Source: Spirochaetia bacterium | GTDB lineage: Bacteria; Spirochaetota; Spirochaetia; DSM-2461 | DNA length: 64,000 nt | Reading direction: 5' to 3' | Assembly: GCA_963666985.2 (NCBI GenBank) | Contig: CAXXIA010000002.1 | Coordinates: forward strand, 2,560,001-2,624,000 | In this document: piece by piece, positions 1-20,128 of the stretch | Numbering within the stretch: the stretch's first letter is position 1 | Layout of the letters: every line of letters begins with the position of its first letter | Translations under genes and position numbers: made by a program | Notes under the pieces: model-generated | Told to the model about the DNA's origin: nothing | Seen by the model: the letters and a program-made list of their open reading frames with translations, nothing else | Databases searched by the model: none

Positions 1-92
1 ACTGCCCCCTTCTAAAACAGGCGGCCGCAACCTAAAACACCCATAGCTGTCTTTAGCCACAGCCGCCCTAATCAAATAAAATGGTTTTTGAT

Positions 93-984: not shown

Positions 985-1012
985 AACATCTCCTTTCTAT
1001 TTTTCTGCCTGC

Positions 1013-1543: not shown

Positions 1544-1547
1544 GTAA

Positions 1548-1829: not shown

Positions 1830-1854
1830 TACTCATCTCCCTGCTAATGAGGGC

Positions 1855-1900
1855 AGACTACAGCGGGCTATCTGAAGTTATGAATTGAAATAATTCAAAA
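1855..1900 (-). promoter_or_regulatory. Putative activator-dependent late promoter of the leftward operon
   Basis: TTGAA-N4-TTCAA dyad (1885-1898), 24 nt, then -10-like TAGTCT (1860-1855); same geometry at 11480-11523. Confidence 0.65.
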
Positions 1901-1914
1901 AGCTTATGAAGTAA

Positions 1915-4183: not shown

Positions 4184-4216
4184 TCTAAATCCTCCTTACC
4201 TATTAAAGAAAATGCA

Positions 4217-4396
4217 CTAAAGCTTCAGTAAGCTTTTTGCTACAAACTTAATAAAAGCCAATCTTTCATCGAGAGTATCGAGCTGTTCATATTCTTCCCT
4301 TTCATTAACAATATCGAAGGCCAATCTGAACAGCTGAATCTTGCGCCACTGAGACTCTGAAATCTTGTCGAAAGGTTTCGCGGTACCCATATTCAT
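4217..4396 (-). CDS. Small hypothetical protein (59 aa, absent from ORF track)
   Basis: Hand translation MNMGTAKPFDKISESQWRKIQLFRLAFDIVNEREEYEQLDTLDERLAFIKFVAKSLLKL*. Confidence 0.45.
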   Translation of the reverse strand: MNMGTAKPFDKISESQWRKIQLFRLAFDIVNEREEYEQLDTLDERLAFIKFVAKSLLKL

Positions 4397-4472
4397 CTAT
4401 TCGGTAGTTTATGTTTATTTCTTGATTAAAGAAATGTTCTTGTTAATTCCGATTATCTTAGATAAAAGGAAA

Positions 4473-5117
4473 TTACCCGACATTCCGGTTTGTCTTAGCC
4501 TCGTCTTCCATCATCTGTTCATGTAAAAGGCCTTCGGCATAGTAGGTCACTTTTAATCTTCTCTGTGGGTTGAGCTTTTTCATCGTAGAGCAGACAGGGC
4601 AGGGATCGGTTTCGCCGCGTCGTTCCATAGTGTCCAGGATTATTCTCATCTGAGTTAAAGGATCGCTGATATCCTCGAAGATTTCTTTAGCCATTTCTTC
4701 CGGTGGACGGGAGGGCTTCTCTGACTCTTCATTTTGATTCGGTCCAATTTGGACCGAATCGAAAACCCTGGGTTCTAAGCCGGGTGCCGAGGGTGTGGAT
4801 TCCTCTTCTCCAGAGGGCTCATTTCGATTCCGCCCATTTTGGGCGGAATCGGTTTTCCCTGTTTCGGTGGCTTCATTTTGATTCTGTCCATTTTGGACAG
4901 AATCAAAAAACATAGAGCCTTGGCCTGTTAATAGCCATGTTGGATTTATGCGGAATTCGTCTATTATAGATTCCAATAATGTAATTGATGCTTCCTGCTT
5001 TCCTAATTCTATTCTACTTAAGTTACTTTGAGTCATCTTTAATCTACTAGAAAACTCTTTCTGATTCATGTTTAAGGTTTTTCGAATAGATGCAATTCGC
5101 ATATTTACCTGCGACAT
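4473..5117 (-). CDS. Prophage repressor, XRE/HTH_3 family
   Basis: HTH MNQKEFSSRLKMTQSNLSRIELGK and INPTWLLTGQGSMF; divergent from ner; ATG 5117 preceded by AGGCGG. Confidence 0.85.
   Translation of the reverse strand: MSQVNMRIASIRKTLNMNQKEFSSRLKMTQSNLSRIELGKQEASITLLESIIDEFRINPTWLLTGQGSMFFDSVQNGQNQNEATETGKTDSAQNGRNRNEPSGEEESTPSAPGLEPRVFDSVQIGPNQNEESEKPSRPPEEMAKEIFEDISDPLTQMRIILDTMERRGETDPCPVCSTMKKLNPQRRLKVTYYAEGLLHEQMMEDEAKTNRNVG
4729..4908. repeat. Three ~32-bp palindromic repeats inside the repressor CDS
   Basis: Cores GATTCnGnCCA-N3-TGGnCnGAATC at 4736-4760, 4826-4850 and 4880-4904, each preceded by TCATTT. Confidence 0.9.
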
Positions 5118-5140
5118 ACACGTAAACCGCCTATTTATAA

Positions 5141-5169
5141 TTGACATATACGCAGAGCGCATATAATAT
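5141..5169 (+). promoter_or_regulatory. Early sigma70 promoter with overlapping candidate operator
   Basis: TTGACA (5141-5146)-17 nt-TAATAT (5164-5169); spacer contains imperfect dyad ATATACGC-AGA-GCGCATAT; GCAnnnCGCATAT also occurs 60 bp upstream (5092-5104). Confidence 0.75.
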
Positions 5170-5316
5170 GAGTGTATCGGCTACTTGGATAGCCCGAACA
5201 AATCTAAAAATGCGGGAAGCCGGTATGTTTCAGCAGCCGAAAGCTTCCCGCAAAGGAGCATCTATGAGTCTAAACCACAATTCGTTTAAACACAAAGGCT
5301 TTGGAGGCATGGAAAA

Positions 5317-5553
5317 ATGAAAGTTTGCAGAAAGCCAAACAGGGATGTGCCGCAGGCAACCAAGATTCAGGTTCTCCTGCGCAAAAAGGACATCAGTCAA
5401 ACCGAACTCGCCCGGAGAGCCGGAGTCACCATGGTGACGGTGAATCAGGTGATTTGGGGTGTCAAGAAGATTCCCCGGATACGTCTGCATATCGCCAAGG
5501 AACTGGGCTTTGAAAGCTGGGATGAACTGATGGCCCACAAGGAGGTCGTTTGA
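5317..5553 (+). CDS. Ner/Cro-like HTH regulator
   Basis: ISQTELARRAGVTMVTVNQVIWG HTH; first gene of the early operon. Confidence 0.85.
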   Translation: MKVCRKPNRDVPQATKIQVLLRKKDISQTELARRAGVTMVTVNQVIWGVKKIPRIRLHIAKELGFESWDELMAHKEVV

Positions 5554-6362
5554 TGAATCAAGATCAGGTCAAAGAAATCCTTTTGCAAATTAAATCCGAG
5601 GTTCCTGATTTCCAAGTTATCTTCTCAGGGAAAGAACGTCGGAAAGTTGACGGCCTCTATAAGCCCGACACCCAAGAAATCATCATCCACAATAAAAACT
5701 TCAAAGAGTCGCACAGTCTTATATTCACTGCCGTTCACGAGTTCGCTCATCACATCCTTTTTCACGAAGAAGGATGGAACGTTTCCAAATCGCACAATAC
5801 TCATTTCTGGAATACCTTTTACGACCTGCTGGATGAAGCCGAAAAGAAAGGCCTCTGGATTGATCCACTTAAAAAAGAAGAGGAACTGCTGAAGAAAATA
5901 AAGGAAGTGCAGGATTCTTTAAGTGGTGTCACCAAGAAAGAAAAAGACGTCGGCCGCGATTTCATAAAAGTTGTTGAGCTGGCCCTGAACTGTGGGGTTG
6001 AGGTTAACCACATCTGCCGCCGCTATCTCCGGATGAAACCGGCCACAATGAAGCACTACGTCATGCTCTTCGTTACGAACATCTCCTCTGATCTTAGCCC
6101 TGATGCATCGCTGGAAGTCTCCCGGATTAAGAATCTTGAGAAACGGGAACTCCTTCAAGCCTCCCTTACAGAAGGCCGAACCATCAGCCAAGCCAAAGAG
6201 TCCATTCTGGGACGAGTGGAGACGGAAGAATCCGAGCGGGATCAAATCGCCGATATGTGGCAACAGATTGCCAGGCTGGAAAAGGAAGTAACCAAGAGGG
6301 AACACCGGATTGAAGAACTGAAGGCCCAAATCGAAAGCATACAGGAGAGCGCAAATGGCTAA
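5550..6362 (+). CDS. SprT-like zinc metallopeptidase-domain protein with C-terminal coiled coil
   Basis: HEFAHH and downstream HNTHFW motif. Confidence 0.7.
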   Translation: MMNQDQVKEILLQIKSEVPDFQVIFSGKERRKVDGLYKPDTQEIIIHNKNFKESHSLIFTAVHEFAHHILFHEEGWNVSKSHNTHFWNTFYDLLDEAEKKGLWIDPLKKEEELLKKIKEVQDSLSGVTKKEKDVGRDFIKVVELALNCGVEVNHICRRYLRMKPATMKHYVMLFVTNISSDLSPDASLEVSRIKNLEKRELLQASLTEGRTISQAKESILGRVETEESERDQIADMWQQIARLEKEVTKREHRIEELKAQIESIQESANG

Positions 6363-7380
6363 AGGATTACTGGGAGACCAAACATCTATTGATCTGCCGA
6401 AAACACAGTTGACGGTTATTACCCAAGAACCTGTTGACTCCCTGACCCCCCATCCGGAGAACGGCAAGTATTTCAGTGACATGGCAGGTGAAGTCTGGGA
6501 GGCCTTTCTCGAAGACATCAAAGAGAACGGCATCACCGAGCCACTCACCATCGATGAAGCGACCCGCTACATTATAAAAGGAAACCAGCGCCATCGGGCG
6601 GCTGTTATTCTTCAGCTGGAAACCGTGCCCTGCATCGTGAGGCCCTACGAGGATGAACAGGACGCCCTGGACGATCTGATCCGCGATAACGCCATGCGGC
6701 GGGACATGGGGCTTCTGGACAAGTACAAGCTGGTGGGCCACCTGAAACAGCGCCTGGAAGATCGACGCGGAGGGAATGCCCGAGGCGGCGGAGAGAACAA
6801 AGGCGGGAGTGGAACTGTTCCGCCTCGGGATCAAATCTGCCAGATCCTGGGGCTTCATAAAAATGATGTCACAGCCGCCCTGTTTCTTGAAGGCCTTGAT
6901 GCAGATGCAAAAGCGGCGTTCTTCGAGTGGGTGAATAAATACAACCCATCCAAGACGAATCTCTATGAGAAGGTCAAAGAACTTAAAGCCGCGAAGAAAG
7001 AGCTGGATGATGAGAAGAAGGCTCTGAAAAAAGAGATAAAAGATCAGAAGGCCCGCATCAAGGATTTGGAACATCTGGAAGAAGAGAAGGCCCGCCTGGA
7101 AACCGACCGGCAGATTCTGGATAACTGGAAAGAATCCGATCCCAAGCTCTGCGCGGATTCTCGGTATTTTGCCGACGGCATGAAACATGCCGACAAGGTG
7201 ATTCAAATCATGACCGAAGAATTGGCATACCTGCGGGATATGCCGATGAGCAAGCAGGCCGCCATGGCTTTGCATGATCCAATCCTTCAAATACTGGAAA
7301 ACCTCACCGACTACAAGGCTGTGCTGTTCCAGAAATACATCGCGGTTTTGGATGATGAAGAAGAGGACGATGAGGAATAG
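6355..7380 (+). CDS. ParB N-terminal (ParB/Srx) domain protein
   Basis: LTPHPEN, DIKENGITEPL, IIKGNQRHRAA, VPCIV, DNAMRRD. Confidence 0.85.
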   Translation: MAKGLLGDQTSIDLPKTQLTVITQEPVDSLTPHPENGKYFSDMAGEVWEAFLEDIKENGITEPLTIDEATRYIIKGNQRHRAAVILQLETVPCIVRPYEDEQDALDDLIRDNAMRRDMGLLDKYKLVGHLKQRLEDRRGGNARGGGENKGGSGTVPPRDQICQILGLHKNDVTAALFLEGLDADAKAAFFEWVNKYNPSKTNLYEKVKELKAAKKELDDEKKALKKEIKDQKARIKDLEHLEEEKARLETDRQILDNWKESDPKLCADSRYFADGMKHADKVIQIMTEELAYLRDMPMSKQAAMALHDPILQILENLTDYKAVLFQKYIAVLDDEEEDDEE

Positions 7381-7382
7381 CC

Positions 7383-9062
7383 ATGGAAGAGCTTGCCGGT
7401 ATCAAATCGAAATATAGAGAAACAGCATATAACCGGGCAGTTCTGGTGAACAGTTTTTTAGAGTTTGATCCCGCCCGGACGGTTAAAGGTTCGAAGGAAT
7501 TCATTAATCATTTTCTGCCTCTTCATCCGGATCTGGTCGAATTGCTTGAGAAGATTCCGTCTCCCAGTACGTTCTATAGATGGGTTCGCTCTTATCTTAA
7601 TTCCGGCCGGAATATCGCTACCCTGGCTCCAAGATACCAAGACGGTGATGGGGCCGGATCAAAAGCCTTAACGGAAAAAGAACAGAGCGTTCTTTTGATG
7701 TTCTGGATGACTCCGGCGGCGTGGTCGGTGAAGAAGTGTATAGACGAGGCTGAAAAAGCGCTGGGGCATAAAATCAGCTACGCCACCGCATTGCGTTATC
7801 TGGACAGCCAACCAAAGGCTTACAGGTACGCTTTCCGAAGCGGACGGAAAAAAGTAAATGACAAGGTAATGCCGTACATCGAACGAAACCCGGCATTTCT
7901 TGCATCCATGGAACAGGTAACCAGTGACCATCATATGCTGGACTTCTTTGTACAAAAAGACGGTAAGGTATTCCGTCCCTGGATAACGGCTTTCACTGAT
8001 TTACGGAGCCGGAAAGTTCTAAGCTGGGTGATGTGTGAGAACCCGAATAAACTAACGGTTCTTCATACGCTCCAGATAATGACACATGAATTCGGAATCC
8101 CCGAAAAGCTGATTTTCGATAACGGTAAAGATTACAGGTCGGAACTGCTTCGGGGCGGATTCAAAGAGGTGAAGGGCTTTGATTATGAGCTGATCGATAA
8201 GCCCAAAAAGATAGAACTGCAAGGCGTCTTTGGAAGTCTGGGGTGTAAGGTCATTTACGCTGAGCCCTATCATGGCCAATCCAAACCGATTGAGCGTTGG
8301 TTCCGCACACTGGCCGAACGGTTCAGTAAAGAGCAGGCTACCTACTGCGGAAGCAATACCGCTACCCGCCCGGATGAAGCCAAGCTGTACCACCAAACCA
8401 TCGGCCAGATGAAAAAGAAGGATGTGGTTCTCTCTTTCGATGAGGCCTATGCCCGCCTGAATTGCTATATCGACGAATACAACAGCACGTGGGAGCACAC
8501 GGGTAAAGGGATGGACGGGAACACACCGGACTTTATCTTCAAAGCCAATTTGAAAGGCAAGAGGATTCTTCATGATTCGGCACGGCGGAGGATTTTCACC
8601 GAAGCGGAAATCAGAACGGTAAGCCGTGAGGGTGTGCAGATTGAAAGCACCTATTTCTACAACACCGACATGATGGAACTGATCGGCCAGAAAGTCATTG
8701 TTCGCAAGCCGTTGTATTCGGATGCCTTTGTGATTATCTGCGATTTGGATGACCGGGAGTTGATGAGCGCCGTCAGGGATTTGCACGGCGACACCGGCGA
8801 TGTTACGGAAAATAATAATCGCAAGAAGTCCGCCCATAAAGAAATCCGTTCAAAGATAAAACATTTTGAAGACAAAATCCGTCAAGCCAAAGGACTGCCG
8901 GAGATTGAAGAGTACGAAATCCAGAAAGCGGCCAAGCATCAGGAGTATCTGGAAGAGTACAAAAAGGCGGTTGGAGCCGAGAACGAATCGAATCCTTCCC
9001 TCCTGGGGGGAACTTCCCGGCCCTACCGAAAACCAAAACCCCATTTACACCTTTTAGGGTGA
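7383..9062 (+). CDS. Mu-type DDE transposase (MuA-like)
   Basis: Catalytic motifs TSDHH, FDNGKDY, KPIERWF; HTH PSPSTFYRW; Mu C-terminal domain. Confidence 0.93.
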   Translation: MEELAGIKSKYRETAYNRAVLVNSFLEFDPARTVKGSKEFINHFLPLHPDLVELLEKIPSPSTFYRWVRSYLNSGRNIATLAPRYQDGDGAGSKALTEKEQSVLLMFWMTPAAWSVKKCIDEAEKALGHKISYATALRYLDSQPKAYRYAFRSGRKKVNDKVMPYIERNPAFLASMEQVTSDHHMLDFFVQKDGKVFRPWITAFTDLRSRKVLSWVMCENPNKLTVLHTLQIMTHEFGIPEKLIFDNGKDYRSELLRGGFKEVKGFDYELIDKPKKIELQGVFGSLGCKVIYAEPYHGQSKPIERWFRTLAERFSKEQATYCGSNTATRPDEAKLYHQTIGQMKKKDVVLSFDEAYARLNCYIDEYNSTWEHTGKGMDGNTPDFIFKANLKGKRILHDSARRRIFTEAEIRTVSREGVQIESTYFYNTDMMELIGQKVIVRKPLYSDAFVIICDLDDRELMSAVRDLHGDTGDVTENNNRKKSAHKEIRSKIKHFEDKIRQAKGLPEIEEYEIQKAAKHQEYLEEYKKAVGAENESNPSLLGGTSRPYRKPKPHLHLLG

Positions 9063-9072
9063 GGAGAAAATC

Positions 9073-9999
9073 ATGAACGAAATCGGACGTAAGTTTTTTG
9101 AATATATCGAAGAGAAGGAAATCAGCCAGAGTCAGGCTTCCAAGATGATGAATCTCTCGGCTGGCGTTCTCTCGGCTTATAAATCGGACGAATACAAAGG
9201 CAGTATCAAGAACGTTGAGGAGAGGATGGATAAGTTCCTGCGGTCGGAAGAAAGCCGCCGCCGAGCTTTGAAGATTGAGATCCTTCCCATCGGTCCTTAC
9301 CGTCAGATTCAGGATGCCTGCGACATCGCTTTGGAAGAAGGAGATATCGCGGTGATAACAGGCTCGGCAGGAGTGGGGAAGACAACAGCATTGGAAGCCT
9401 ATGTGAAGGAATCCTACGGCTCGGCCGTCATGATCAAAGTGGATAAAACCTTCACCCAGTACAAGCTAATCCGGGAGCTGGCTCAAAGTTTGGGAGTTTT
9501 AAGTAAAGGTTCGGCCGGGAGCGTCACCGAAAGAATCATAGAGAGCCTTAAGAATCATAACCGCGTGGTGATTATCGACGAGGCCGACTATCTTTCTCCA
9601 AACTCCCTGGAATACCTGCGACAGGCGGTGAACGACAAAGGGGAAAGCGGCTTGGTACTCTGTGGTATCCAGCGGCTGGCCCATCAGATCAAGCGGGATT
9701 CGAATGACCATGACCAGCTCTTATCTCGCGTCGGTGTTCATTTGGCCATCGATTCCATCAGCGATCAGGATCTGATACTGGTCATCAAAAGTGTCTATCC
9801 CAAAATGAATCAGAAGCTCATTCGGAAGCTTTTGATTAACAGCAAGATGAGGTTCTACGGTCAGGATGAACCCTCGCTTCGAACCTTGACGAAACTTCTC
9901 AAACGGCTCCATCGGTTCCTCTGGAAATACGATATGGAAGAGCCGGACGAAGAAGCCATCGACAGCGTCGCTTCACTCGTTATGCGGAGGGCTATGTAA
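9073..9999 (+). CDS. MuB-like AAA+ transposition ATPase
   Basis: N-terminal HTH, Walker A GSAGVGKT, Walker B IIDEAD. Confidence 0.92.
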   Translation: MNEIGRKFFEYIEEKEISQSQASKMMNLSAGVLSAYKSDEYKGSIKNVEERMDKFLRSEESRRRALKIEILPIGPYRQIQDACDIALEEGDIAVITGSAGVGKTTALEAYVKESYGSAVMIKVDKTFTQYKLIRELAQSLGVLSKGSAGSVTERIIESLKNHNRVVIIDEADYLSPNSLEYLRQAVNDKGESGLVLCGIQRLAHQIKRDSNDHDQLLSRVGVHLAIDSISDQDLILVIKSVYPKMNQKLIRKLLINSKMRFYGQDEPSLRTLTKLLKRLHRFLWKYDMEEPDEEAIDSVASLVMRRAM

Positions 10000-10127
10000 T
10001 GGAAACCATAATAACAATTCTCGGCATTTTGAGTTTGTTGATCTTTGCTGTCGGATCAGTTGTGGAAACCTTCCACAAACGAGATCGGCGGGGATGCGGT
10101 TTCCCCAAATCAAGGAGTAGGAAATGA
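9999..10127 (+). CDS. Small membrane protein (42 aa, absent from ORF track)
   Basis: METIITILGILSLLIFAVGSVVETFHKRDRRGCGFPKSRSRK*; TAATG and ATGA overlaps with both neighbours. Confidence 0.65.
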   Translation: METIITILGILSLLIFAVGSVVETFHKRDRRGCGFPKSRSRK

Positions 10128-10720
10128 ACGAAGAATATATGGAAAACAGGGCCGGGGAAAGAATTCCCAAAGCCGCCGTGAAAACCAAGGATATCCTTCG
10201 GGATGAGTGGGTAAAGGAGAGAATCCAAAGGGCTAAGGAGATTCGGGATTTGATCTTTGACTTCCGTATCGAAACCCTTCGGGGGATGGAAGATTTGGAA
10301 GATTTACTGGCCGCTGAATACGGAGTGGAACTGCGTTCCAATACTAAGGGCAACCGTTCCATAACCTCCTTTAACGGCAGGCTGAAAGTGGAGAGGGATT
10401 CGCGTGAAATTACAGCCTTTGATGAACAAATCCATATCGCCAAAGAGCTGATTGACGAATGCCTGGAAGATTGGACCAAGGACGGCCGGATGGAAATTAA
10501 AGCTATCGTTCAAAAGGCCTTTAAACTCGACAAAAGAGGCCGCATGAATATCCGGGAAATCAAGAGCCTGCGGCAGTTTGAGTTTGATGATAATCGGTGG
10601 AAAAAAGCCATGGAGATTATCGCCGATTCGGAAGTCTTCCTCCAAAGTAAAATTTCGGTTTCCTTTCATCAGAAGCGGGCGATTGACGGGAAGTGGACTC
10701 GGTTGGAATTAAAAATGTGA
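10124..10720 (+). CDS. DUF3164-family Mu-like phage protein
   Basis: KGNRSITSFNG, FDEQIHIAKELIDECL, WKKAMEII motifs. Confidence 0.8.
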   Translation: MNEEYMENRAGERIPKAAVKTKDILRDEWVKERIQRAKEIRDLIFDFRIETLRGMEDLEDLLAAEYGVELRSNTKGNRSITSFNGRLKVERDSREITAFDEQIHIAKELIDECLEDWTKDGRMEIKAIVQKAFKLDKRGRMNIREIKSLRQFEFDDNRWKKAMEIIADSEVFLQSKISVSFHQKRAIDGKWTRLELKM

Positions 10721-10742
10721 AGCTGTTTCGGCGGGTAAGGAT

Positions 10743-11195
10743 TTGATGGATAAAAACAAGTGGATTCAAATTATCCACGTTGCTAAAAGAGACTTGAGAT
10801 TACAGGATGATGAATACCGGCTGATTCTGCAAAGCGCCGCCGGTATTACATCCGCATCCGAACTCTCTTCATCTTTTCAATTCAACCAAATCATGACCGC
10901 CTTTAAGAAGCTGGGCTTTCATTCGAACCGTCCCCGGCAAACGACAAGAAGAAAACACGAAAACCGCTGGGGCTGTTCCGAGGCCCAGCGGTCCTACATT
11001 GAAGGACTCTGGAAACTCATGAGCCGCCGAAAGGATCTGGAAAGTCTGGAGGCAATGGTGAAGAGAATTGCCCATGTCGATCATCCCAGGTTTTTAAATA
11101 CGAAAAGCGCTACCCCGGTGATTCTGGCCATGCGTCAGATGTGCCAGGACCAAGGGATCAATCCCGATAGGAAAGATTACGATGACCAGAGATGA
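10743..11195 (+). CDS. GemA/DUF1018-family regulatory protein
   Basis: IQIIHVAKRDLRLQDDEYRLIL...FKKLGF and AQRSYIEGLW. Confidence 0.85.
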   Translation: MMDKNKWIQIIHVAKRDLRLQDDEYRLILQSAAGITSASELSSSFQFNQIMTAFKKLGFHSNRPRQTTRRKHENRWGCSEAQRSYIEGLWKLMSRRKDLESLEAMVKRIAHVDHPRFLNTKSATPVILAMRQMCQDQGINPDRKDYDDQR

Positions 11196-11472
11196 AAACA
11201 GCTATGAGATATTCGAACAAATCGCATCCATTGTCGGAGAGGATGATGCGTTTTCAATTTGCGAAATGTTTGCCGGTGAACAAATCCTTTTTCCCAAAGC
11301 CATTTTACGAATGAAACGAAATTATGAAATCCGAAAAGAATTCAAGAAGGGTTCATCCTATAGGGCTTTATCTCTTAAATACGATTTGACCACACGTCAG
11401 GTTCGAACGATTTGCCATCCTGAAAAAGGATACAGTGAAATTCAGATGGATCTTTTTGAAGCGTTGTCATAA
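11182..11472 (+). CDS. Mor/C-family transcription activator
   Basis: FAGEQILFPK, RNYEI, LSLKYDLTTRQVRTI. Confidence 0.88.
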   Translation: MTRDENSYEIFEQIASIVGEDDAFSICEMFAGEQILFPKAILRMKRNYEIRKEFKKGSSYRALSLKYDLTTRQVRTICHPEKGYSEIQMDLFEALS

Positions 11473-11477
11473 AGCGC

Positions 11478-11523
11478 TTTTGAAATAATTCAATTCATTA
11501 ATTCAACAGAGATTATTTAAGCT
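11478..11523 (+). promoter_or_regulatory. Putative activator-dependent late promoter of the packaging operon
   Basis: TTGAAATAATTCAA (11480-11493), 24 nt, then TAAGCT (11518-11523). Confidence 0.65.
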
Positions 11524-11529
11524 TCGCCT

Positions 11530-11991
11530 GTGAGAAACTGCGAACAGGCACGCGACTTATATATCAAAGGCTCCTCGATAAGCGGTATTGCTTCAGAGCT
11601 GGACGTCTCATTGCAAACGGTTTACAGCTGGCGCAAAAGTGATGAAGGTACCGAGAAAGATTGGGATAAAGCCAAGCGCGTCTATCTCATGTCGCCTGTT
11701 GAGCTGTCGGGTATTTTCATGGATTCGGTCAAGAAGATGATTCTGGAGATTTCTGAAGATCCCATGAAATTGGCCGATCCTAAGTATGCCGATGCCATTA
11801 CAAAATGCATCGCCGCCATGAAGAAGATCGATCCCATGTACAATTATATGGGAGCCTCTCTTGATTTGATGAGGGTAATCGATCAGTACCTGAAGAAGAC
11901 CGATACCGAACTGGCCAAGAGAATGCAGAGCCACTGGCCCGGCATCAAAGAAGAGATGGAACGGTTCGCCACACGGGACGGCCTATTCTAA
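11530..11991 (+). CDS. DUF1804-like HTH protein, putative terminase small subunit
   Basis: ARDLYIKG..IASELDVSLQTVYSWRK...WD; directly upstream of the large terminase. Confidence 0.75.
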   Translation: MRNCEQARDLYIKGSSISGIASELDVSLQTVYSWRKSDEGTEKDWDKAKRVYLMSPVELSGIFMDSVKKMILEISEDPMKLADPKYADAITKCIAAMKKIDPMYNYMGASLDLMRVIDQYLKKTDTELAKRMQSHWPGIKEEMERFATRDGLF

Positions 11992-13544
11992 TGAACGATC
12001 GCCTGAGCCGGGTTAAGAGTGCCAGGGATTTTCAAAAACAATGGGACGCTCTGGCCGCTGAGATCTTTTCCCGAACCCCCTTTGAAGACGGGAGTTCAAA
12101 GGAAGATAGAAAAGAGGCGGCATCGAAAGATCCGTGGTCCATGGCCCTGGTTTATTTCCCCGAATATGTCAGGAACGAAGGAGCCCCTTTTCACAAGAGA
12201 TGGCCGAAGATTGCAGGCATAGAGAATGCACCAGTTCTGATTGAAGCTTTTCGTGGTGCGGGGAAATCAACGTTCTTCACTTTTCTTGATAGCGTTTACA
12301 ACATCCTTTTTGGAGACTATAAATTCATGCTCTTTGCCTCATACACAGAGGATAAAAGCAAGGTCTTCACCGGAAGGATTCTTCTGGAACTCAAATACAA
12401 CAAGAGGATTACAGAGGACTTCGGTCGGATTATTAATCCGCTTTTGGACTTCTCCGCCGTGGGTAATTTCGCCGCCAAGGTTGACGGCCGCCGGATCATG
12501 GTCATGGCCTGTTCCATAGGGCAAGATCCCAGGGGCCTGGTTTCCGGAGCTTACCGACCGGATTATGTCCGCCTCGATGATATCCAAAATCGTAAACGAG
12601 CCAGGAATCCGGAATGGGTCAAGCAGACTGTCGAGTGGATCACCGCCGACCTTGTACCTGCTCTGGCGGAAACCTATAACATGAAAATCGCCGCAACTTC
12701 TGTCAGGCCTCGGGATGTCGTTCACTTCTTAAAAGAAGGGGCGGAGACAAGGGAGCCGGTGAAATCCTACAGCTTCCCGGCTTTGGATAAATACGGGAAA
12801 TCCACATGGTCAGCTTATTTTCCACTGAAGAGATTGGAACAAATAAAGAAAACAATCGGAGCCTTGGTCTTCCGGCAGGAATATCTTCTTATTCCATATG
12901 CAGAAGAAGACGGCAAGGTTCAAGAGTCCTGGTTGTTGGACTACGATCCGGCAGAAGTCAGGGAAAAAGAATATTTGGTGAAGGTCTCAGCCCTTGATCC
13001 GGGCGGTGGCAAAGCTACAAAGAAACACGACTTTAAGGCTCATATCTGTATCGGCCTGAATCCCGGCCCCGAGATTGATATTCTGGAAGCCCGAATCAGA
13101 AGGGAGACTCCCCGGAGGATGATTGAGGGCTGCTATCTCATTCATGAAAAGTGGGAACCTTGGCAGACCTTCTGGGAAGAGAACGGACAGCAGAGTCTCT
13201 TGAAGGATACCTTCGATTTCATGGCCGAGAGGTTCGGCTATCCGCTCCGGCTGAAGGCCGTAACCAATACCCAGAATAAAGAGATGCGAATTGAGGGGAC
13301 ACTCTTCACGCTTTTGGAAAACCACTGCATTCGGTTCCATCCGACAAACGCCGATCAGAAGCTTTTAAAAGAACAGCTACTGGATCTTTTTGATGGAGCC
13401 AACGACGACGGTCCGGATGCTCTGGAAATGGCCGTAAGAAAAGGATTGCAGAAACTGAAAAGCATCATGAAGGGTTCTCATTCAGATGTGGTTTCAATTA
13501 AACGGCGGATTGTTCCCAAAGGACTGGAGGGGTATTACACGTGA
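11991..13544 (+). CDS. Terminase large subunit
   Basis: AFRGAGKST, RPDYVRLDD, ALDPGG, DDGPDALEMA. Confidence 0.92.
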   Translation: MNDRLSRVKSARDFQKQWDALAAEIFSRTPFEDGSSKEDRKEAASKDPWSMALVYFPEYVRNEGAPFHKRWPKIAGIENAPVLIEAFRGAGKSTFFTFLDSVYNILFGDYKFMLFASYTEDKSKVFTGRILLELKYNKRITEDFGRIINPLLDFSAVGNFAAKVDGRRIMVMACSIGQDPRGLVSGAYRPDYVRLDDIQNRKRARNPEWVKQTVEWITADLVPALAETYNMKIAATSVRPRDVVHFLKEGAETREPVKSYSFPALDKYGKSTWSAYFPLKRLEQIKKTIGALVFRQEYLLIPYAEEDGKVQESWLLDYDPAEVREKEYLVKVSALDPGGGKATKKHDFKAHICIGLNPGPEIDILEARIRRETPRRMIEGCYLIHEKWEPWQTFWEENGQQSLLKDTFDFMAERFGYPLRLKAVTNTQNKEMRIEGTLFTLLENHCIRFHPTNADQKLLKEQLLDLFDGANDDGPDALEMAVRKGLQKLKSIMKGSHSDVVSIKRRIVPKGLEGYYT

Positions 13545-15022
13545 AATTCGCACCGGAAGATAAAATAAAGAAACAGGCTCTGCAATATGCAACACTCGAT
13601 AAAGCTCTGGGTGGCGTCTATCTAATTCTTGATGTCCTGCCTGATCCTGATAAAGTGCTGCGAAAAGCCGGTAAAGGAGTCGAAGCCCTACGGGATCTTC
13701 TGGTGGACGACCAGATGGAAGCCTGCTGGAATGTTCGCAAAGCGGCCTTGAAAAAAACCGGTTGGCACCTTGTCCCCGGTGGAGAGTCGGCCGGGGAGAA
13801 ACAAGCCTGTGCCGAACTCTTAGCGCTCTTTTCCGAAGCCTATGATATGGACCGAATCCAGGGGGAAATGATCGAGGCGGCCGCTCTGGGATTCTCTCCC
13901 CTGGAAATCCTCTGGCTCTCAAAGGGCGGGAAGTGGATACCTTCCGACTTGGTTGGAAAGCCGACCGAATGGTTTTGCTTTGGCGAGAAAAAAGAGCTGC
14001 GGTTCCGAACTTCTTATATCGTCACAGAAGAGGCCCCGGTGAATCGCTTCCTGATTGTCAGCAATGGGGCCAGCTATGCAAATCCCTATGGCTCAAAGCA
14101 GTTTTCCAAATGCTACTGGCCGGTTCAATTCAAGCGGAACGGCTGGAGGTGGTGGGCACTCTTTGTCGAAAAGTTTGGCGGTTCTTTTTTGACGGGTGCC
14201 TACGATGAGAACGCAACCCCAGAGGATAAAAAAGCTCTTCTCGACGGCCTCTACAATTTGATTTCAGGAGGGGCCGCCATCTTCCCGGAAAAGACCAAGG
14301 TGAATACCATCTCGGATTCCGGCAAATCAATGGGCGGAACCCTGCATCAGAAGTTCGAGGAGTTCTCCAACGCCGCCATCTCCAAAGTGCTTCTGGGTCA
14401 GACTCTAACGACCGAAGTTCTCACCGGTTCTATGGCGGCCGCCAATGTTCACAATCTGGTGCGGGAGGATATTCGGCTTTCAGATCTGAAGATGTGCTCG
14501 TCGGCCTGGAACCGGCTCTGCAAAATGTACACCCTTTTTAATTATGGTGATGGGGTAAAAGCTCCCCGCTTCAGTTATGAAGGGGAAGAGGATCTGCAAA
14601 CCGCCAGAGCCTCTCGTGATATCAACCTGAAAAGCCTGGGCGTACAATTCAATGAAACCTACTTCAAAGAAGTCTATGGACTCTCTGAAGATCACTTTTC
14701 TGTAAGCACCGACTCAGAGCCTCAGCAGGGCGACTTCTCCGTCGAACCCTCCGGCCTGGTAACGTTCAGTCAGGACAAAGCCAGTGACGACATGATGAAC
14801 GACTTCATGGCCGACAAAGAAAGGGACGGCCAGGAGATCATGGACAAGATGATCGAGCTGTTCCAGAAAGAAGTCGAATCCGCTGATAGCTGGGAAGCTG
14901 CACAGCAGAACCTCATGAAGAAAATCAAATCCAAAGAGATGTACTCCCAAAGAAAGAAGCTGGCCGGGGTGTTGAATAATGTCCGATACGTCGGAGTCAA
15001 CACCGGGGCTTCCGATGCCTGA
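13541..15022 (+). CDS. Portal protein (Mu gp29/DUF935 family)
   Basis: GFSPLEILW, FVEKFG, ISKVLLGQTLTT, AANVHNLVREDI. Confidence 0.9.
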   Translation: MKFAPEDKIKKQALQYATLDKALGGVYLILDVLPDPDKVLRKAGKGVEALRDLLVDDQMEACWNVRKAALKKTGWHLVPGGESAGEKQACAELLALFSEAYDMDRIQGEMIEAAALGFSPLEILWLSKGGKWIPSDLVGKPTEWFCFGEKKELRFRTSYIVTEEAPVNRFLIVSNGASYANPYGSKQFSKCYWPVQFKRNGWRWWALFVEKFGGSFLTGAYDENATPEDKKALLDGLYNLISGGAAIFPEKTKVNTISDSGKSMGGTLHQKFEEFSNAAISKVLLGQTLTTEVLTGSMAAANVHNLVREDIRLSDLKMCSSAWNRLCKMYTLFNYGDGVKAPRFSYEGEEDLQTARASRDINLKSLGVQFNETYFKEVYGLSEDHFSVSTDSEPQQGDFSVEPSGLVTFSQDKASDDMMNDFMADKERDGQEIMDKMIELFQKEVESADSWEAAQQNLMKKIKSKEMYSQRKKLAGVLNNVRYVGVNTGASDA

Positions 15023-16253
15023 GCAGGATATCCCGAAACCGAAAGACGCGATGGCCTTTCTGAAAAGAAAGAAGGTCATCATCAGGCCGGGGAATGAATG
15101 GTTTGATATCAATTCGGGTGAGCATGCTCAGACCTTCTCCGTGGCTCACTGTGCCAGTGTAGACATCGCCGAACAAATCTTCGGATTCATGAATGAGGCT
15201 CTGGCGAACGGGGAATCCTTTCAGGATTTCAAGAAGAAGATGATCCCCATGATGCAGGAGTCCGGCTGGTACGGGCGTCCTGATGTCACCGCCAAGGATA
15301 AGGGCTACATCAATTGGCGGCTGAAAATCATGTATCAAACCAACATGAGCACGGCTTACGCGGCCGGGCATTATCGTCAGCAAATGAGGGGTGCGGATGG
15401 GCGACCGTACCTTGTCTATAAGCAGGTGCAAAGAGACACGAAACGTGACGCCCATGAGAAGCTTCACGATACTGCCTATCCGGCAGATCATTCTTTCTGG
15501 GATGAATACTATCCGCCGAACGGTTACCGATGCGGATGCTACACCGTCTCCATTTCTGAATCCCAGTACCAAAACGGACCCTACACGAAAGGGGCGAGCG
15601 GTCCGGATCTTGCCGAATTCAGAAAGTCCGTTGATGAGAAATGGAGGTACAACCCAGGCCAGGAAGTCTATGCGCCATCGGTGAAGAAGTACGAGAACCT
15701 CCGTGGCATCAGAATGAGTGACGGCCGCTCGGCCTATCAGCATGTACGGGAATCCTATCGGGAAGAGATGTCCGGATTTTCATTGACTCAAAAAGAATAT
15801 GAGAAGTGGGTGGATAAAGTGCTCTCCGGTGAAACCTTTCAGGATGTTCCTCATAACATTGCTACCGTTCAGAAAAAGGTTACTCAGAAGATTGAGATTG
15901 ATCCGAAAATCATCGCCGACGGGAAGGCCATTCATCATGGAGCCAGAGGCCGGGACACGGTTTCCGATGCATCAGGGAAGGTTATTCAAAGGGGCCTCGA
16001 CCCGGAGAAAGACTTTACCATCGAAGAAATCAAGGACATTCCCAAAGGTCTGGCCGATCCGGATTATATCTTTACAGATATTACCAATCGGTTGAATAGA
16101 ATCTTTTGCTATTCAATAGGAAAAGGAATGTTGGCCAGAATCGTTTTAAGAAAAAGAACGGAAACCTCAAGCTTAAAATTGGTGACTTTCCAAAAGGTAA
16201 AGCCGGATGACGTTCTGAAGAATGGAAGATTGCAGAAGGTCTATGAGAAATAA
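15015..16253 (+). CDS. MuF (gp30-like) head protein with C-terminal putative BECR-fold nuclease domain
   Basis: TNMSTAYAAG, FWDEYYPPNGYRCGC, WRYNPG; C-terminal extension with AIHH, IPKGLADPDYIF, LVTFQK. Confidence 0.85.
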   Translation: MPEQDIPKPKDAMAFLKRKKVIIRPGNEWFDINSGEHAQTFSVAHCASVDIAEQIFGFMNEALANGESFQDFKKKMIPMMQESGWYGRPDVTAKDKGYINWRLKIMYQTNMSTAYAAGHYRQQMRGADGRPYLVYKQVQRDTKRDAHEKLHDTAYPADHSFWDEYYPPNGYRCGCYTVSISESQYQNGPYTKGASGPDLAEFRKSVDEKWRYNPGQEVYAPSVKKYENLRGIRMSDGRSAYQHVRESYREEMSGFSLTQKEYEKWVDKVLSGETFQDVPHNIATVQKKVTQKIEIDPKIIADGKAIHHGARGRDTVSDASGKVIQRGLDPEKDFTIEEIKDIPKGLADPDYIFTDITNRLNRIFCYSIGKGMLARIVLRKRTETSSLKLVTFQKVKPDDVLKNGRLQKVYEK

Positions 16254-16335
16254 GCCGGTCGGGCGGGACTACGATTCCCACTATATTGCCCTTGAAAGGG
16301 TAGCCTTGAGATTTTTGGCTTCATCTCAACCGGCT
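16253..16335 (+). ncRNA. Candidate structured RNA (closing stem plus three hairpins) after the MuF gene
   Basis: AGCCGGT/ACCGGCT, GGGA/TCCC, TTGCCCT-TGAA-AGGGTAG, TTGAGAT/ATCTCAA. Confidence 0.45.
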
Positions 16336-16553
16336 ATTGATGATTTTATCGTCATTTAAAGCGCTTTTCAACACTGTTTAATAGGCCATTTTATTCAAAT
16401 TTAGGGCCTAAAATTATGAGATTTTACGAGTTTTTCAGTATTTTTTCCAAACCTTAGATTATTCGCTATTGCTTTCCTATGATCCTATTATATAAGGATT
16501 TATGCAGTATTTCCGGGCAAGAATCCCTTTTTCATTTTCTATGACCCCCTACA

Positions 16554-17372
16554 AATCTGCCAGAAACCTTGGAAAACAGACTCGGGATTCCCGCCGCAAT
16601 CGCCAACGACGCGGACGCCGGCGGATTGGCCGAATGGAGCATACTGCGCCTGGAGCTTCTTTATTGGGTGTTCGGCGGCGGATGGGGCGGTACCTGGGTG
16701 GACCGGAACGGAGAAATCCGCTATCCGTCGACAGGATGGGACGGCCTGGATTCTTCTCTGCACTACAGCAACGAACCGGGATATGCCATCGGATTGGAGC
16801 GGAGCCGTCTGCGGAGTCTTTTCGCCGAAGTCGGCGCCCATTGGGAACTTTTTGAGGTTCAATTGAACGAAGATTCCGCATTGCCCGCCGATTCCCTCGT
16901 GGGACCCGAAGGGCGGAAAGATACACTGCGGGCGGAAGTTATCCTTTCCGGTCCCGGCCGCTGCCGGCTTTTCCGTTCTCTGGTGGAAGACGATGATTCT
17001 TATAAGAAATACCTGGAAATTCACGAGATTGCCGAGGTAACCGATCCGGCGAGCGCCGGGGCTCATATCAGCAAATTATCGGGAATGAGAGTGGAGGCGG
17101 CGGTGAATACGGACCGCCTTTACGGCAAGGTTCTTGCCGAAGCGACCCGTATATTGTTAAGACAAGCCGAAGCCGACGGTCTGCCGCAGGGGGTGCCGAT
17201 TTGTTTGGGCGGGAAACCCAGTTACGCACTGCCGTATTTCGGACCTTCGACACAGAGGGTCTTGGGGAAATCGGGTCTGTTCAACTATCTTCGTCCGTCG
17301 GTTATCGATGAACGGGGAAGCAACGCCAATCTGGTGGGAGCCGCCGAGCTGGCCAGACGGGCCGCGAAGTAA
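16554..17372 (+). pseudogene. 3' part of a ROK-family kinase/regulator gene interrupted by the prophage
   Basis: Frame reads NLPETLENRLGIPAAIANDADAGGLAEW...FGGGWGG...ANLVGAA from the first base after the phage end; N-terminal DxGGT region is missing. Confidence 0.85.
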
Positions 17373-17501
17373 AAAGCTGTAATCCGAAGATTCCGCCGGA
17401 ATTGCATTCCGCAGATATTCCCATTATTTGAATGAGCCTCATTTGATTATCAGCCGATTCTGTGTTTACATGAAATATATCTGAAATAGAGGGATTTAAT
17501 T

Positions 17502-18371
17502 ATGGTCACACTGGATTCGCTGGCTGTTACGGTTCTGGCCGAAGATACCGTCTGTTATGAAACACCGTATTTGGGCCAGCATGGAATATCATTGTATCTC
17601 ACCGCCATGCGTGATGGGCGGATAACGAATGTCCTTTTCGACGTTGCTCAGCATCCCGAACCGCTTTTGGCGAATATGGAAATGCTTGGAATCGATCCTT
17701 CTTCCGTTGACGCGGTGGTTCTCTCTCACTGTCATTACGATCACACTCAAGGGCTTGCTTCCGTCGTCAAGGCCATCGGCAAGAATGATCTTCCGGTTAT
17801 CGGTCATCGGGATTTGTTCAGACCGCATTTCATATCCAATCCGTCTCTTCGATGCATCGGTGTTCCGGCGAAGGACGGTCCCGATGAGATCCGAGAAGCC
17901 GGCGGTGTGTTTTTTCCGGTTACGGGGCCTTTTGAAATTACCCCCGGTTTGGTTACCAGCGGGGAAGTGGTTCGAAAAACCGAGTATGAGGGTGTGGGGA
18001 TGGCCTTGAAGACTTTGGTGGACGGAGAGGTTGTTACCGATGAGGTTCTCGACGATCTGAGTCTTTATGCATCGGTGGGCGACAAAGGATTGGTGGTTCT
18101 CACCGGCTGCAGTCATGCGGGGATTGTGAATATCACGCGGCAGGGAAGGGACCATACGGGCCTTAACGCGGTGGAAGCCGTTATCGGCGGATTTCATCTG
18201 ATTGAAGCTTCGGATGAGAAAATCAGGAAGACCGCCGAAGGACTGGCCGAACTGAAGATTAAGAGACTCCATGCCGGTCACTGCACGGGTTTTAAAGCTC
18301 AAATGGAATTGGCCCGTGTTTTCGGTGAGCGTTTTGCGCCGATGCGGACCGGCGATCGGTACGAAATCTGA
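17502..18371 (+). CDS. MBL-fold metallo-hydrolase
   Basis: HGISLY, LSHCHYDHTQG, TGCSHAG, IGGFHL, HCTG. Confidence 0.9.
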   Translation: MVTLDSLAVTVLAEDTVCYETPYLGQHGISLYLTAMRDGRITNVLFDVAQHPEPLLANMEMLGIDPSSVDAVVLSHCHYDHTQGLASVVKAIGKNDLPVIGHRDLFRPHFISNPSLRCIGVPAKDGPDEIREAGGVFFPVTGPFEITPGLVTSGEVVRKTEYEGVGMALKTLVDGEVVTDEVLDDLSLYASVGDKGLVVLTGCSHAGIVNITRQGRDHTGLNAVEAVIGGFHLIEASDEKIRKTAEGLAELKIKRLHAGHCTGFKAQMELARVFGERFAPMRTGDRYEI

Positions 18372-18490
18372 TCCGCAGGGACTTTTTCGGAGTTTTAACA
18401 GCGGCGAACGTGTGCGCTCGATGAGGGAACTCCGGCAGGCCGCCCCCCTGCAAGAGGGTTCGTCCGGATACATCAGAATCAGGATTAATA

Positions 18491-18519
18491 AAAGGCCGCT
18501 TTCTTTCGGGCGGCCTTTG
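18491..18519. terminator. Intrinsic terminator between convergent genes
   Basis: AAAGGCCGC...GCGGCCTTT hairpin with A/T tails. Confidence 0.7.
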
Positions 18520-18606
18520 TTCGTTTTATGATTTTTTTGCGCGTTCATGCCTCCCGAATCCTTTTATACCCAGGGCCCGGGCGGCATATACAATCGGATT
18601 ACATCT

Positions 18607-19950
18607 TTAATACCGATCGGAGGGCCATTCTTCCATAAGGGCGTGGATGTTCTTCTTATCCCGGCCGACGCCGATGAAATAGATTATCAATCCCACGGCC
18701 ATCCAAACGGCGGCATACAGCAGTGCCTTCCATCCCTGAAGAATCAACAGATAAACGGAAACACCCAGTCCGATAACCGGAAGAACGAGAAATCCTTTCT
18801 TCTTGTAGAAGCCCGGCAGTTTTTCAACGAGTTCCGGATACTTGCGGCGCGCCATGAGAACGCCGAGATGAGTGATGATCCAGTTGTAGAGGAACATGGC
18901 GACGATGATTTCGGCGACCAATTGAATCGTGCCTGTCGTGATGAGGATAATCGCCAGCACACAGGTTGCGATAAGACCGAAAATCGGGGTTCCGAATTTA
19001 TTCAGAGTGGCCGTTTTCCCCCCGAGGATTTTATCCCTGGAAAGGCCGAAAAAGATTCTGGCCGCGACGGCCTGTTCACCGTTATGCGACGAGAGAATGG
19101 CGGCCCAGGCGATAATAACGATGAAGAGAACGCCGAAGGGACCCATGAAACTGGAAGCGACCGCCGCATAGGGAGCTTCCGATGCGGCGAACTCGGTCCA
19201 GGGCATAACGCCGGTGGATACGAACGCGGAGAGAATGTAGAGGACCGCCGGAACCAAAGCGCCGAGAATGATGCCCCAGGTAATCGTTTTGGCGGGATTC
19301 TTGGCTTCTTCCCCCAGATCGGCCGCCAGAGTCAGGCCGGCGTAGGAGAACAGGAGAAGCGAGACAGCCTTCATGACGCCGCCGAATCCGGCAGGAGATC
19401 CCATCGCGATGTTTTCGCCTTTCATATGAGGAATCCCCAGAATAATGTAGACGATAATGCCGGCCACCATGAGAAGGAACAGAATGTTCTGGACGATTTT
19501 CACGGTCCCGATTCCCAGCCAGTTGATGACGAAGAACACGATGGTTACCGCGACGGCGCCGATTACAACGGGAATGCTTCCTGAGGAACCGGGAACGGCG
19601 TTCAGATAGCTGATGAATGCCTGGGCCGTAATGGCGACAGGACCGATGATGGCCAGCCACATGCCCCATCCAGAGAGGAATCCGAGAGGCTTTGAAACAA
19701 TGCGCGTCGGATAAACATAACTTTCCCCTCCCTCGACCGGGTAGAGAAAATTGAGGAAAATCGTACTGATTCCGACGAGGATGACGGGAATAATGCCGAT
19801 GGCATACGCCAGCCATGTCAGGGCGCCCGCGTATTGAGCCGCGATTCCCGTAACGATGAATACACCCGCGCCGATAACGATACCCGCGGTAATCGCCGTA
19901 ACGTCGAGTATGCCGAGTTCTCTGCGGAGTTTGCCGCTTCCTTGGGACAT
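18607..19950 (-). CDS. APC-family amino acid permease
   Basis: LRRELG, IVIGAGVF, FSYAG...EEAKNP; about 12 TM segments. Confidence 0.92.
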   Translation of the reverse strand: MSQGSGKLRRELGILDVTAITAGIVIGAGVFIVTGIAAQYAGALTWLAYAIGIIPVILVGISTIFLNFLYPVEGGESYVYPTRIVSKPLGFLSGWGMWLAIIGPVAITAQAFISYLNAVPGSSGSIPVVIGAVAVTIVFFVINWLGIGTVKIVQNILFLLMVAGIIVYIILGIPHMKGENIAMGSPAGFGGVMKAVSLLLFSYAGLTLAADLGEEAKNPAKTITWGIILGALVPAVLYILSAFVSTGVMPWTEFAASEAPYAAVASSFMGPFGVLFIVIIAWAAILSSHNGEQAVAARIFFGLSRDKILGGKTATLNKFGTPIFGLIATCVLAIILITTGTIQLVAEIIVAMFLYNWIITHLGVLMARRKYPELVEKLPGFYKKKGFLVLPVIGLGVSVYLLILQGWKALLYAAVWMAVGLIIYFIGVGRDKKNIHALMEEWPSDRY

Positions 19951-20128
19951 AAATCTCTCCTTGTGTCAGTAGGCTCAGAATCCGTGAAAAAAATGATAAT
20001 CCAAGATCAAATCACTATTATATAGTGAAATAAACAAACCATAATTTTCGGAATGTGAAACTTAGATCACTAAAAGAGAATATCACGGAAACAATTTACA
20101 GCACAAAGGGGCAAGTTCTTTTAATGAC

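Follow-up and report, generated by a model that had tools for sequence, protein, structure and literature searches.

A candidate tRNA-like antisense RNA accompanying the PBECR-type domains of phage MuF proteins

What could keep a virion-borne toxin domain in check when no evident immunity gene follows it? This question is raised by a locus in a DNA stretch of 64,000 nucleotides (nt) from a Spirochaetia bacterium (assembly GCA_963666985.2, contig CAXXIA010000002.1, positions 2,560,001 to 2,624,000; in the following called the window), in which the MuF head protein gene of a Mu-type prophage is extended by a C-terminal domain and followed, from its stop codon on, by a compact structured element. 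Other MuF toxins mostly have a short open reading frame (ORF) after them, with a figure of 89.4% of 191 given in the available text of Jamet et al. 2017 (PMC5576092). The initial annotation of the locus had suggested that a virion-linked domain of the BECR (Barnase-EndoU-ColicinE5/D-RelE) fold is paired here with a cis-encoded, roughly tRNA-sized structured RNA. The analysis described in the following points to a separate RNA gene on the minus strand, and in our estimation there is an even chance that its product acts as a constitutive RNA antitoxin or immunity factor, in the form of a tRNA-shaped decoy, for a virion-borne predicted ribonuclease (RNase).

The features of the MuF gene, with amino acids abbreviated as aa, are as follows.

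15015..16253, plus strand: MuF, a Mu gp30-like head protein with 412 aa when read from the ATG at 15015 (Pfam Phage_Mu_F, E 1e-13; PHROG 220, minor head protein)
15850..16250, plus strand: PBECR-type (BECR-fold) C-terminal domain, predicted RNase (AlphaFold model, VIA-align, ESM Atlas)
15936..15938, plus strand: conserved His of the N-terminal helix, which is His308 when counted from the ATG and H64 in P0002, predicted to be catalytic; invariant in 20 of 20 tails
16185..16187, plus strand: conserved Thr of the last core strand, Thr391 (T147 of P0002), predicted to be catalytic; conserved to at least 90% in alignment A3

Upstream of MuF, a Portal_Mu match was found with Pfam. A MuF protein with a C-terminal extension, encoded in the packaging module of a temperate phage, is also what characterizes the MuF polymorphic toxins, which according to the available text of Jamet et al. 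2017 (PMC5576092) likewise join MuF to a variable C-terminal effector. An AlphaFold (AF2) model of the C-terminal domain built from 20 aligned tails reached a predicted local distance difference test score (pLDDT) of 92.8 and was used in place of a model from four sequences, for which this value was only 57. Among 48,161 chains compared by VIA-align, the best matches were BrnT (Z 6.0), RelE (5.8), CdiA-CT (5.5) and colicin D (5.4); Z scores of 5 to 6 are middling, though the leading rows were consistently BECR proteins. In the ESM Atlas, the domain matched MuF_C/PBECR2/PBECR3 clusters at 0.92. The BECR-like fold read from the sequence by the initial annotation is thus upheld by the model, the VIA-align matches and the Atlas clusters, whereas a Foldseek search with the same model gave no match at E≤0.001. 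A sequence-profile search of the PDB with the domain yielded no match, either. The Pfam profiles PBECR3 (E 0.08, 13.3 bits with a cut-off of 30) and MuF_C (13.5 bits with a cut-off of 27.6) were approached from below, and the domain appears to represent a divergent PBECR subfamily that lies under all Pfam PBECR and MuF_C cut-offs. It is modeled with a BECR-type fold, and since the pair His308/Thr391 fits the PBECR active-site pattern of His with Thr or Ser given in section 19 of Iyer et al. 2017 (PMC5512222), nuclease activity is predicted, which would make the domain an RNase. The PBECR1-5 and MuF-C fusions of that study carry the same fold and residue pattern on MuF, portal or polyvalent virion proteins and were likewise predicted to be RNases; they differ from the domain described here in that the available text mentions no RNA or immunity factor associated with them.

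The element at the MuF stop codon comprises the following parts, with base pairs abbreviated as bp.

16343..16371, minus strand: sigma-70-type promoter with -35 TTGAAA (16371-66), 17-nt spacer and -10 TAAAAT (16348-43); 10 of 12 consensus matches
16250..16336, minus strand: predicted small RNA of ~85 nt, convergent with MuF, its 3′ end overlapping the MuF stop (folding z; alignment to R2, see below)
16327..16335, minus strand: 5′ strand of the closing (acceptor-like) stem of 9 bp, with its partner at 16253-16261 (minimum-free-energy fold; homologous helix in relatives)
16317..16326, minus strand: D-loop-like segment (GAUGAAGCC region), divergent in the window copy (fits the conserved family loop motif R-R-(N)-AGC)
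16289..16300, minus strand: middle hairpin in the position of an anticodon arm, of freely variable length and loop in relatives, without a conserved anticodon
16263..16281, minus strand: T-arm-like hairpin with a 6-bp stem and a 7-nt AUCGUAG loop, the loop class of L020, L022 and L180 (T-stem pairing in relatives)

All four stems described in the initial annotation are present in the sequence, namely at 16253-59/16329-35 (AGCCGGT/ACCGGCT), 16265-79 (GGGA/TCCC), 16286-303 and 16306-29, with A16329 used by both the last of these and the closing stem. Its additional pairing of GGCTT with AAGCC shares bases with the closing stem and therefore cannot form together with it. The plus-strand orientation favored there has to be given up as well, since it is the minus strand that has the promoter and also the better fold (z of -3.2 compared to -1.8 over 101 nt, and of -3.5 compared to -2.5 at the exact element bounds), and the closing and T stems of 25 relatives, read on the minus strand, contain 43 G-U vs 14 A-C pairs. 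Both strands fold better than expected by chance. The promoter is the best promoter-like site in 700 nt, where three sites were found and 1.1 expected, and its predicted start at ~16336 is the first base of the closing stem. The remark that no U-tail follows the element holds: an intrinsic terminator (G+C hairpin with U run) was found at the element on neither strand. A reading of the window's middle loop as a Glu anticodon was dropped because this arm is not conserved.

A covariance model of the spirochaete-relative RNAs, termed R2 and built without the window copy, aligned to the latter from end to end (16250-16337, minus strand), though weakly (11.5 bits, E 0.55); the family membership of the window copy rests on its position, promoter, closing stem and T-arm. 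In P0004, an 84%-identical relative, translation reads through the MuF stop into the element; back-translation of this peptide, which is blind to silent changes, points to an A-U pair of the T-stem having become G-U, a change valid only on the minus strand, and to a family-typical GGAGC in the D-loop. When the genome that contains the window was searched with R2, a tRNA-Pro and two weak hits came up but no second copy, the three contig sets compared contained no sequence variants at the element, and Rfam (E≤10, window positions 1-20000) gave no match on it. Judged by its sequence, the element is a good candidate for a real structured RNA gene, separate from and convergent with MuF, on the minus strand and with its own promoter.

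The structure was specified on an alignment of 25 distinct spirochaete-group elements, excluding that of the window. In these, 88% of the cells were paired and 19 of 26 pairs showed double-sided changes, a level reached by none of 500 shuffles, with slid partners being paired at 30-48%. The covariation expected downstream of homologous MuF genes was thus found. The family architecture consists of an 11-bp closing stem (90% paired, double-sided changes in eight of the 11 pairs), a D-like arm, one freely variable middle arm that has no conserved anticodon, and a T-arm with a 7-nt loop whose stem is 91-98% paired. In addition, the two loops covary in the manner of the tRNA elbow (contacts 18-55 and 19-56): U or G at T-loop position 55 goes with G or A in the D-loop, and C or U at position 56 with G or A. 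With two registers allowed, and after one of the 25 elements had been dropped as it lacked a 7-nt loop call, this rule was kept in 21 of 24 elements, compared to a mean of 9.9 after shuffling (0 of 100000 reaching the observed value). The rule was first noticed on four loci, and 17 of the 20 remaining loci follow it. On the protein tree, there are several changes between the elbow states, one of them separating the sisters L014 and L015; all three exceptions have the T-loop class of the window copy. Because D-loop and T-loop covary, selection for a three-dimensional tRNA-like shape is indicated, a shape that plain antisense pairing does not need. Columns 35-36 of alignment A7, in the D-like loop, form 2 bp with columns 83-84, in the junction that precedes the T-stem (GC/GC in 21 and GG/CC in two of 25), possibly an extra tertiary contact.

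The same relatives which have the T-arm, the 7-nt T-loop and both elbow contacts of a tRNA have neither the 7-bp acceptor stem with free NCCA nor a conserved 7-nt anticodon loop. Their closing stem of 9-14 bp pairs the terminal CC with a 5′ GG, leaving no free NCCA, and ARAGORN detected no tRNA in 37 loci; the elements are therefore not ordinary tRNAs. Rfam at gathering score returned for 18 loci only an unrelated TD-1 match, and for 20 further loci one unrelated weak match and one tRNA match at the element: in L219, from another lineage, the element scored 32 bits with a cut-off of 29 for the tRNA family (RF00005), as the sole one of these 20. No Rfam family describes the element. As far as sequence and covariation allow a statement, the spirochaete-family RNA appears to be a mimic of the tRNA elbow with a long closing stem. 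As a side observation, the related prophage locus L031 contains a TD-1 RNA motif (RF03155, 70 bits) at 5623-5751 on the plus strand, 1.9 kb from MuF.

The association of the RNA with PBECR domains was examined in 251 MuF loci, of which 216 were complete with at least 230 nt downstream and 167 were retained as representatives at 85% identity. From 137 scanned tails, 39 matched PBECR2, PBECR3 or MuF_C at E≤0.003; single-linkage clustering, which may chain via the linker, then gave 108 PBECR-type tails, 24 other tails and 30 MuFs with no tail (n=162, with five unclear ones left out). An antisense promoter scoring at least 13.5 and starting 50-195 nt beyond the MuF stop was found at 84 of the 108 PBECR-type MuFs, at four of 24 with another tail and at three of 30 without tail, so at seven of the 54 non-PBECR MuFs together, while the sense strand and the inside of the gene in the same 108 loci gave 20 each. 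At a score of at least 15, the ratio was 54/108 to 0/54, and promoter and closing stem together occurred in 63 of 108 PBECR-type loci, two of 24 and one of 30. Since kin are not independent, a paired test was made on the MuF tree: 12 independent pairs differed on average 8.2 times in the same way, 0.1 times in the opposite way and 3.7 times not at all (median p 0.008, range 0.002-0.18). R2 applied to 60 other loci gave nine hits at E≤0.05, each of which lies at a MuF stop and on the minus strand. Among six named phages compared, B3 and RcapMu (PBECR2) as well as SuMu (PBECR3) have a gap of 92-147 nt (92 nt in RcapMu) after MuF with promoter and closed-stem element, and in SfMu, DMS3 and RS138 MuF overlaps the next gene and the element is absent. 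The domain of Mu, to which SfMu is close, is called inactive in the available text of Iyer et al. (PMC5512222).

The association extends to carriers other than MuF. Seven non-MuF PBECR3 loci were considered, two from genome searches and five chosen for diversity, with their DNA unseen, from 24 phage hits. In six of them, which comprise one solo gene, one fusion each to portal and ParB, and three polyvalent proteins of Helicobacter, a closing stem is predicted and an antisense promoter with a score of at least 14 lies within 52-117 nt of the domain; in the seventh, the contig ends too early. In four of these loci, including the Helicobacter polyvalent proteins, the element lies inside the reading frame, and in L268 the element promoter is the only antisense site of at least 15.5 in 3.3 kb. 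The non-MuF copies fold modestly (z from -3.5 to +0.6), and the ParB fusion locus has three tandem structured units. These observations suggest that the RNA follows the PBECR domain rather than MuF, be it in a MuF, portal, solo or polyvalent context. The pairing put forward by the initial annotation thus finds backing in the covariation, in the tRNA-likeness of the nearest relatives and in the tracking of PBECR in four contexts, except that the RNA is not a 3′ element of the MuF mRNA. A PBECR1 search of 201 genomes gave no match, with its controls also silent, a PBECR3 search of four genomes gave none, and single-protein scans of viral contigs returned no relatives. Six long multi-stretch phmmer hits were excluded, and the two inspected (P0017, P0025) were repeat proteins.

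Tandem RNA copies occur in L024, L027-L029, L032 and L259 and recall, by analogy, the arrays of orphan immunity genes. In L024, L027, L028, L029 and L032 (~3704-3900, minus strand), two different RNA units follow one promoter, the promoter-proximal one being the single RNA of L030/L031; the units are 5-8 nt apart after ACCA-like ends, as in processed tRNA arrays. In L014-L026, a conserved palindrome, possibly an operator or a sense-strand hairpin, fills the 17-nt spacer between -35 and -10, and the -35 box abuts the Shine-Dalgarno sequence of the next gene on the opposite strand.

Taken as an antitoxin, the RNA would be made constitutively in the lysogen, independently of the late genes, and would bind the PBECR domain and keep the predicted RNase inactive, replacing a protein immunity gene. 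It would serve as a decoy with a tRNA-like elbow, and given its long paired closing stem and the lack of a fixed anticodon it would be bound but poorly cut. In this way the producing cell would be shielded during the synthesis and packaging of MuF-PBECR, and lysogens would be shielded from PBECR that related phages inject, whereas a newly infected cell without the RNA would have no protection until the incoming genome supplies it. This proposal is supported by the predicted BECR fold with its His/Thr pair, the antisense promoter, the covariation of stems and elbow, and the co-occurrence across different carriers.

Several observations weigh against it. The window RNA itself is divergent, being placed by R2 only 10th of 52 weak hits (E 0.55), and its D-loop does not cleanly obey the family rule, with the T-arm present and the D-loop register unclear. 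A T-loop-like hairpin was found on the antisense strand of only 31 of the 108 PBECR loci (controls: three of 108 on the sense strand, two of 54 at other MuFs), and tRNA mimicry is therefore not universal. The promoter is absent from 24 of the 108 PBECR loci, it is present beside 32 of 50 domains without the aligned His as compared to 52 of 58 with it, in a rough alignment that is unreliable across subfamilies, and it also occurs (score 14, z -2.5) in L223, which has a CdiA tRNase tail and an ORF at +39. Nearly identical tails have different RNA sets (L027 vs L030/L031), so the pairing is not strictly one to one. ORFs of at least 50 aa, to which we return below, span the element in 20 of 31 spirochaete-group loci where 10.7 are expected. 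Finally, PBECRs may spare host tRNA according to the available text of Iyer et al. 2017 (PMC5512222).

The RNA might instead be a type I-like silencer that pairs with the mRNA past the PBECR stretch, or whose promoter collides with sense transcription, thereby limiting leaky PBECR synthesis in the lysogen, with the tRNA-like fold serving only processing and stability. It is in keeping with this that in every case the RNA is antisense in cis and directly adjoins the domain end, also where it lies within a reading frame, and short processed cloverleaf antisense RNAs do exist in the phages P1 and P4. However, the RNA overlaps the mRNA after the domain and not the translation start, the tertiary covariation of D-loop and T-loop exceeds what pairing needs, and extra tandem copies would add little to an action in cis, so that we consider silencing unlikely. 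The roles could also be reversed, with the RNA as effector, namely a tRNA-elbow decoy aimed at host defences that target tRNA or at proteins that sense it, and PBECR as the protein that binds, trims or carries it into the virion. The tRNA-like tertiary fold, the presence of the RNA beside domains without the His and the virion association of MuF, portal and polyvalent proteins (available text of PMC5512222) would agree with such a role, but an own sigma-70-type promoter suits expression in the lysogen more than late packaging, Mu-like phages with an inactive-type domain have no RNA, and a fold that varies widely between PBECR subfamilies suits a partner-specific ligand better than the mimic of one host target; this makes the reversed assignment rather improbable. 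A mere terminator, mRNA 3′ structure or DNA signal, such as a recombination site of a mobile PBECR cassette, is hardly to be expected: the stems fold on both strands, the window copy lies at the prophage end and the non-MuF copies fold only moderately, yet the promoter is conserved at fixed distance and strand, the G-U excess on the minus strand and the tertiary covariation are of RNA type, a U-tail is missing, and copies occur within genes and mid-operon.

The remaining alternative is that a small protein from the sense strand is the real immunity factor and the RNA structure secondary. In the window, the relevant ORF is the following.

16222..16359, plus strand: sense ORF of 45 aa that crosses the element in the +1 frame and is probably no immunity gene

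The initial annotation had gone too far in stating that no immunity-type ORF exists, given that this ORF and a 66-aa antisense ORF at 16081-16281 overlap the region; it stands in so far as neither looks like a conserved immunity gene. In favor of a small protein, 25 of 31 spirochaete-group loci have a sense +1 frame that stays open throughout the element (7-12 for the other frames), the excess of long ORFs was mentioned above, and B3 has an annotated 32-aa ORF34 after MuF. On the other hand, the spirochaete ORFs use two frames (16 in +1, four in +2) and vary in length with the distance to the gene that follows: in 16 of 22 loci with a downstream gene the ORF ends at the start of that gene (5.5 expected), this holds for all 15 loci in which that gene is 126-146 nt away, and where no gene follows the ORFs are short or missing. 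Moreover, non-spirochaete PBECR loci show no ORF excess (8/27 vs 6.9 expected), the ORF of P0004 is joined to MuF by a frameshift, and in polyvalent proteins the element lies within the main frame. Because of the two frames, the length tracking and the lack of an excess elsewhere, the sense ORFs are read as translational bridges through the structured stretch and not as immunity proteins, and ORF34 of B3 may be one of the same sort, which renders a small-protein immunity factor very unlikely. Between the MuF stop and the next gene of L014-L026 and L176-L185, such bridging ORFs are short, lie in varying frames and end in ATGA-type overlaps with this gene.

An elbow of D-loop and T-loop without a working anticodon is also found in the tRNA-like domain of tmRNA and in the bacterial Y RNA YrlA, and C4 of phage P1 and CI of phage P4 are small antisense phage RNAs with immunity roles. 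In contrast to these, the element has no tag ORF, a Ro60 partner was not seen, and ARAGORN in 37 loci and Rfam in the window gave no match. The antitoxin RNAs of type III toxin-antitoxin (TA) systems typically lie on the strand of the toxin gene and belong to known families such as ToxI or the abiF motif. The locus shares with them a structured RNA that adjoins and co-occurs with a candidate toxin gene, whereas its RNA is encoded on the opposite strand and the window element matches no Rfam family. A neighboring structured RNA that checks a nuclease-like protein, also in prophages, is the logic that the proposed reading would share with AbiF and the RCd22/abiF RNA (bioRxiv 10.1101/2025.04.15.648962, available text), and likewise with the type III systems ToxIN and TenpIN; here, the candidate toxin has another fold and is predicted to be part of the virion, and the RNA has its own promoter, faces the 3′ end of the gene and is tRNA-like. 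Allo-tRNAs (Mukai et al., PMC5389517, available text) are likewise tRNA-like with a lengthened acceptor stem, some being apparently unused in translation and located near TA genes, but they keep a 12-bp acceptor branch and an anticodon, unlike the RNAs described here with their paired terminal CC, which are tied to one domain family. In the literature searched, whose coverage stops short of supplements and most subscription journals (PMC5512222, PMC5576092, PMC5389517, PMC5737381, a 2026 BECR preprint and the AbiF preprint in their available text included), nothing was found that describes an RNA connected with PBECR or MuF. The RNA-PBECR pairing is thus probably undescribed and belongs to no described type III family.

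Somewhat short of an even chance, in our view, is the wider proposal that PBECR and a tRNA-derived RNA form a widespread, undescribed toxin-immunity class with a virion-delivered RNase and an RNA as immunity factor, in which domain and antisense RNA gene would move as one cassette, even mid-frame, and tandem RNAs would be orphan immunity arrays against rival phages. Up to a quarter of the polyvalent proteins of phages contain PBECR domains, which also occur on MuF and portal proteins. If the proposal is true, it would provide a first case of immunity by RNA among polymorphic toxin systems. Since 2017, PBECRs have been predicted RNases without a known target or self-protection, and most MuF tails have no assigned function; an RNA that tracks the domain offers a candidate for both, with tRNA as the likely target in view of the tRNA-like elbow. 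The link between RNA and domain spans spirochaetes, proteobacteria and Helicobacter phages and could be tested in the cultured phages RcapMu and B3. It would also imply a large uncatalogued family of phage small RNAs, some of them antisense within genes.

The locus is part of a Mu-type prophage of ~35.4 kb that extends from position 2,541,203 of contig C2 to window position 16553, with TG...CA ends, a terminal motif common to both and a flanking 5-bp AATCT target duplication. Its right end is the following feature.

16524..16558, no strand: prophage right end, ending at 16553, with the AATCT duplication at 16554-58 (terminal motif shared with the left end at C2 2,541,203)

The prophage splits a host ROK-family-like gene (window 16554-17372 and C2 2,540,880-2,541,202), the halves of which are in frame around the duplication. 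Transposase, terminase, portal and MuF are transcribed rightwards, capsid and tail genes leftwards and beyond the window, and MuF is the last gene of the right arm after terminase and portal. From its stop at 16251-53 exactly 300 bp remain to the prophage end, in agreement with the initial annotation's figure of about 300. Among named genomes, the nearest MuF relatives belong to Spirochaetota.

Some further observations concern the prophage and the MuF tails. A low-GC (33%) insert at window 1915-4183 (minus strand), which adjoins the repressor, encodes a member of the NA37/YejK family (Pfam E 6e-60) along with a coiled-coil protein of 419 aa that has membrane segments at its C-terminal end; this gene pair looks like an accessory and possibly anti-phage one. 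Within the prophage, between head genes and lysis-like genes, two ORFs at C2 ~2,557,640-2,559,660 (window -2358 to -344) resemble by eye an IS21-type transposase and ATPase, an insertion by which the prophage may be damaged. Eight MuF tails without Pfam match (L087, L206, L208, L212-L214, L216, L222) form a cluster, and one of them contains an HNHPS motif which we take to be like that of JAB/RadC domains. At the left prophage end, an ORF at C2 ~2,541,300-2,542,230 (window -18697 to -17768, minus strand), judged by eye to resemble a DNA adenine methyltransferase, occupies the position of Mu mom.

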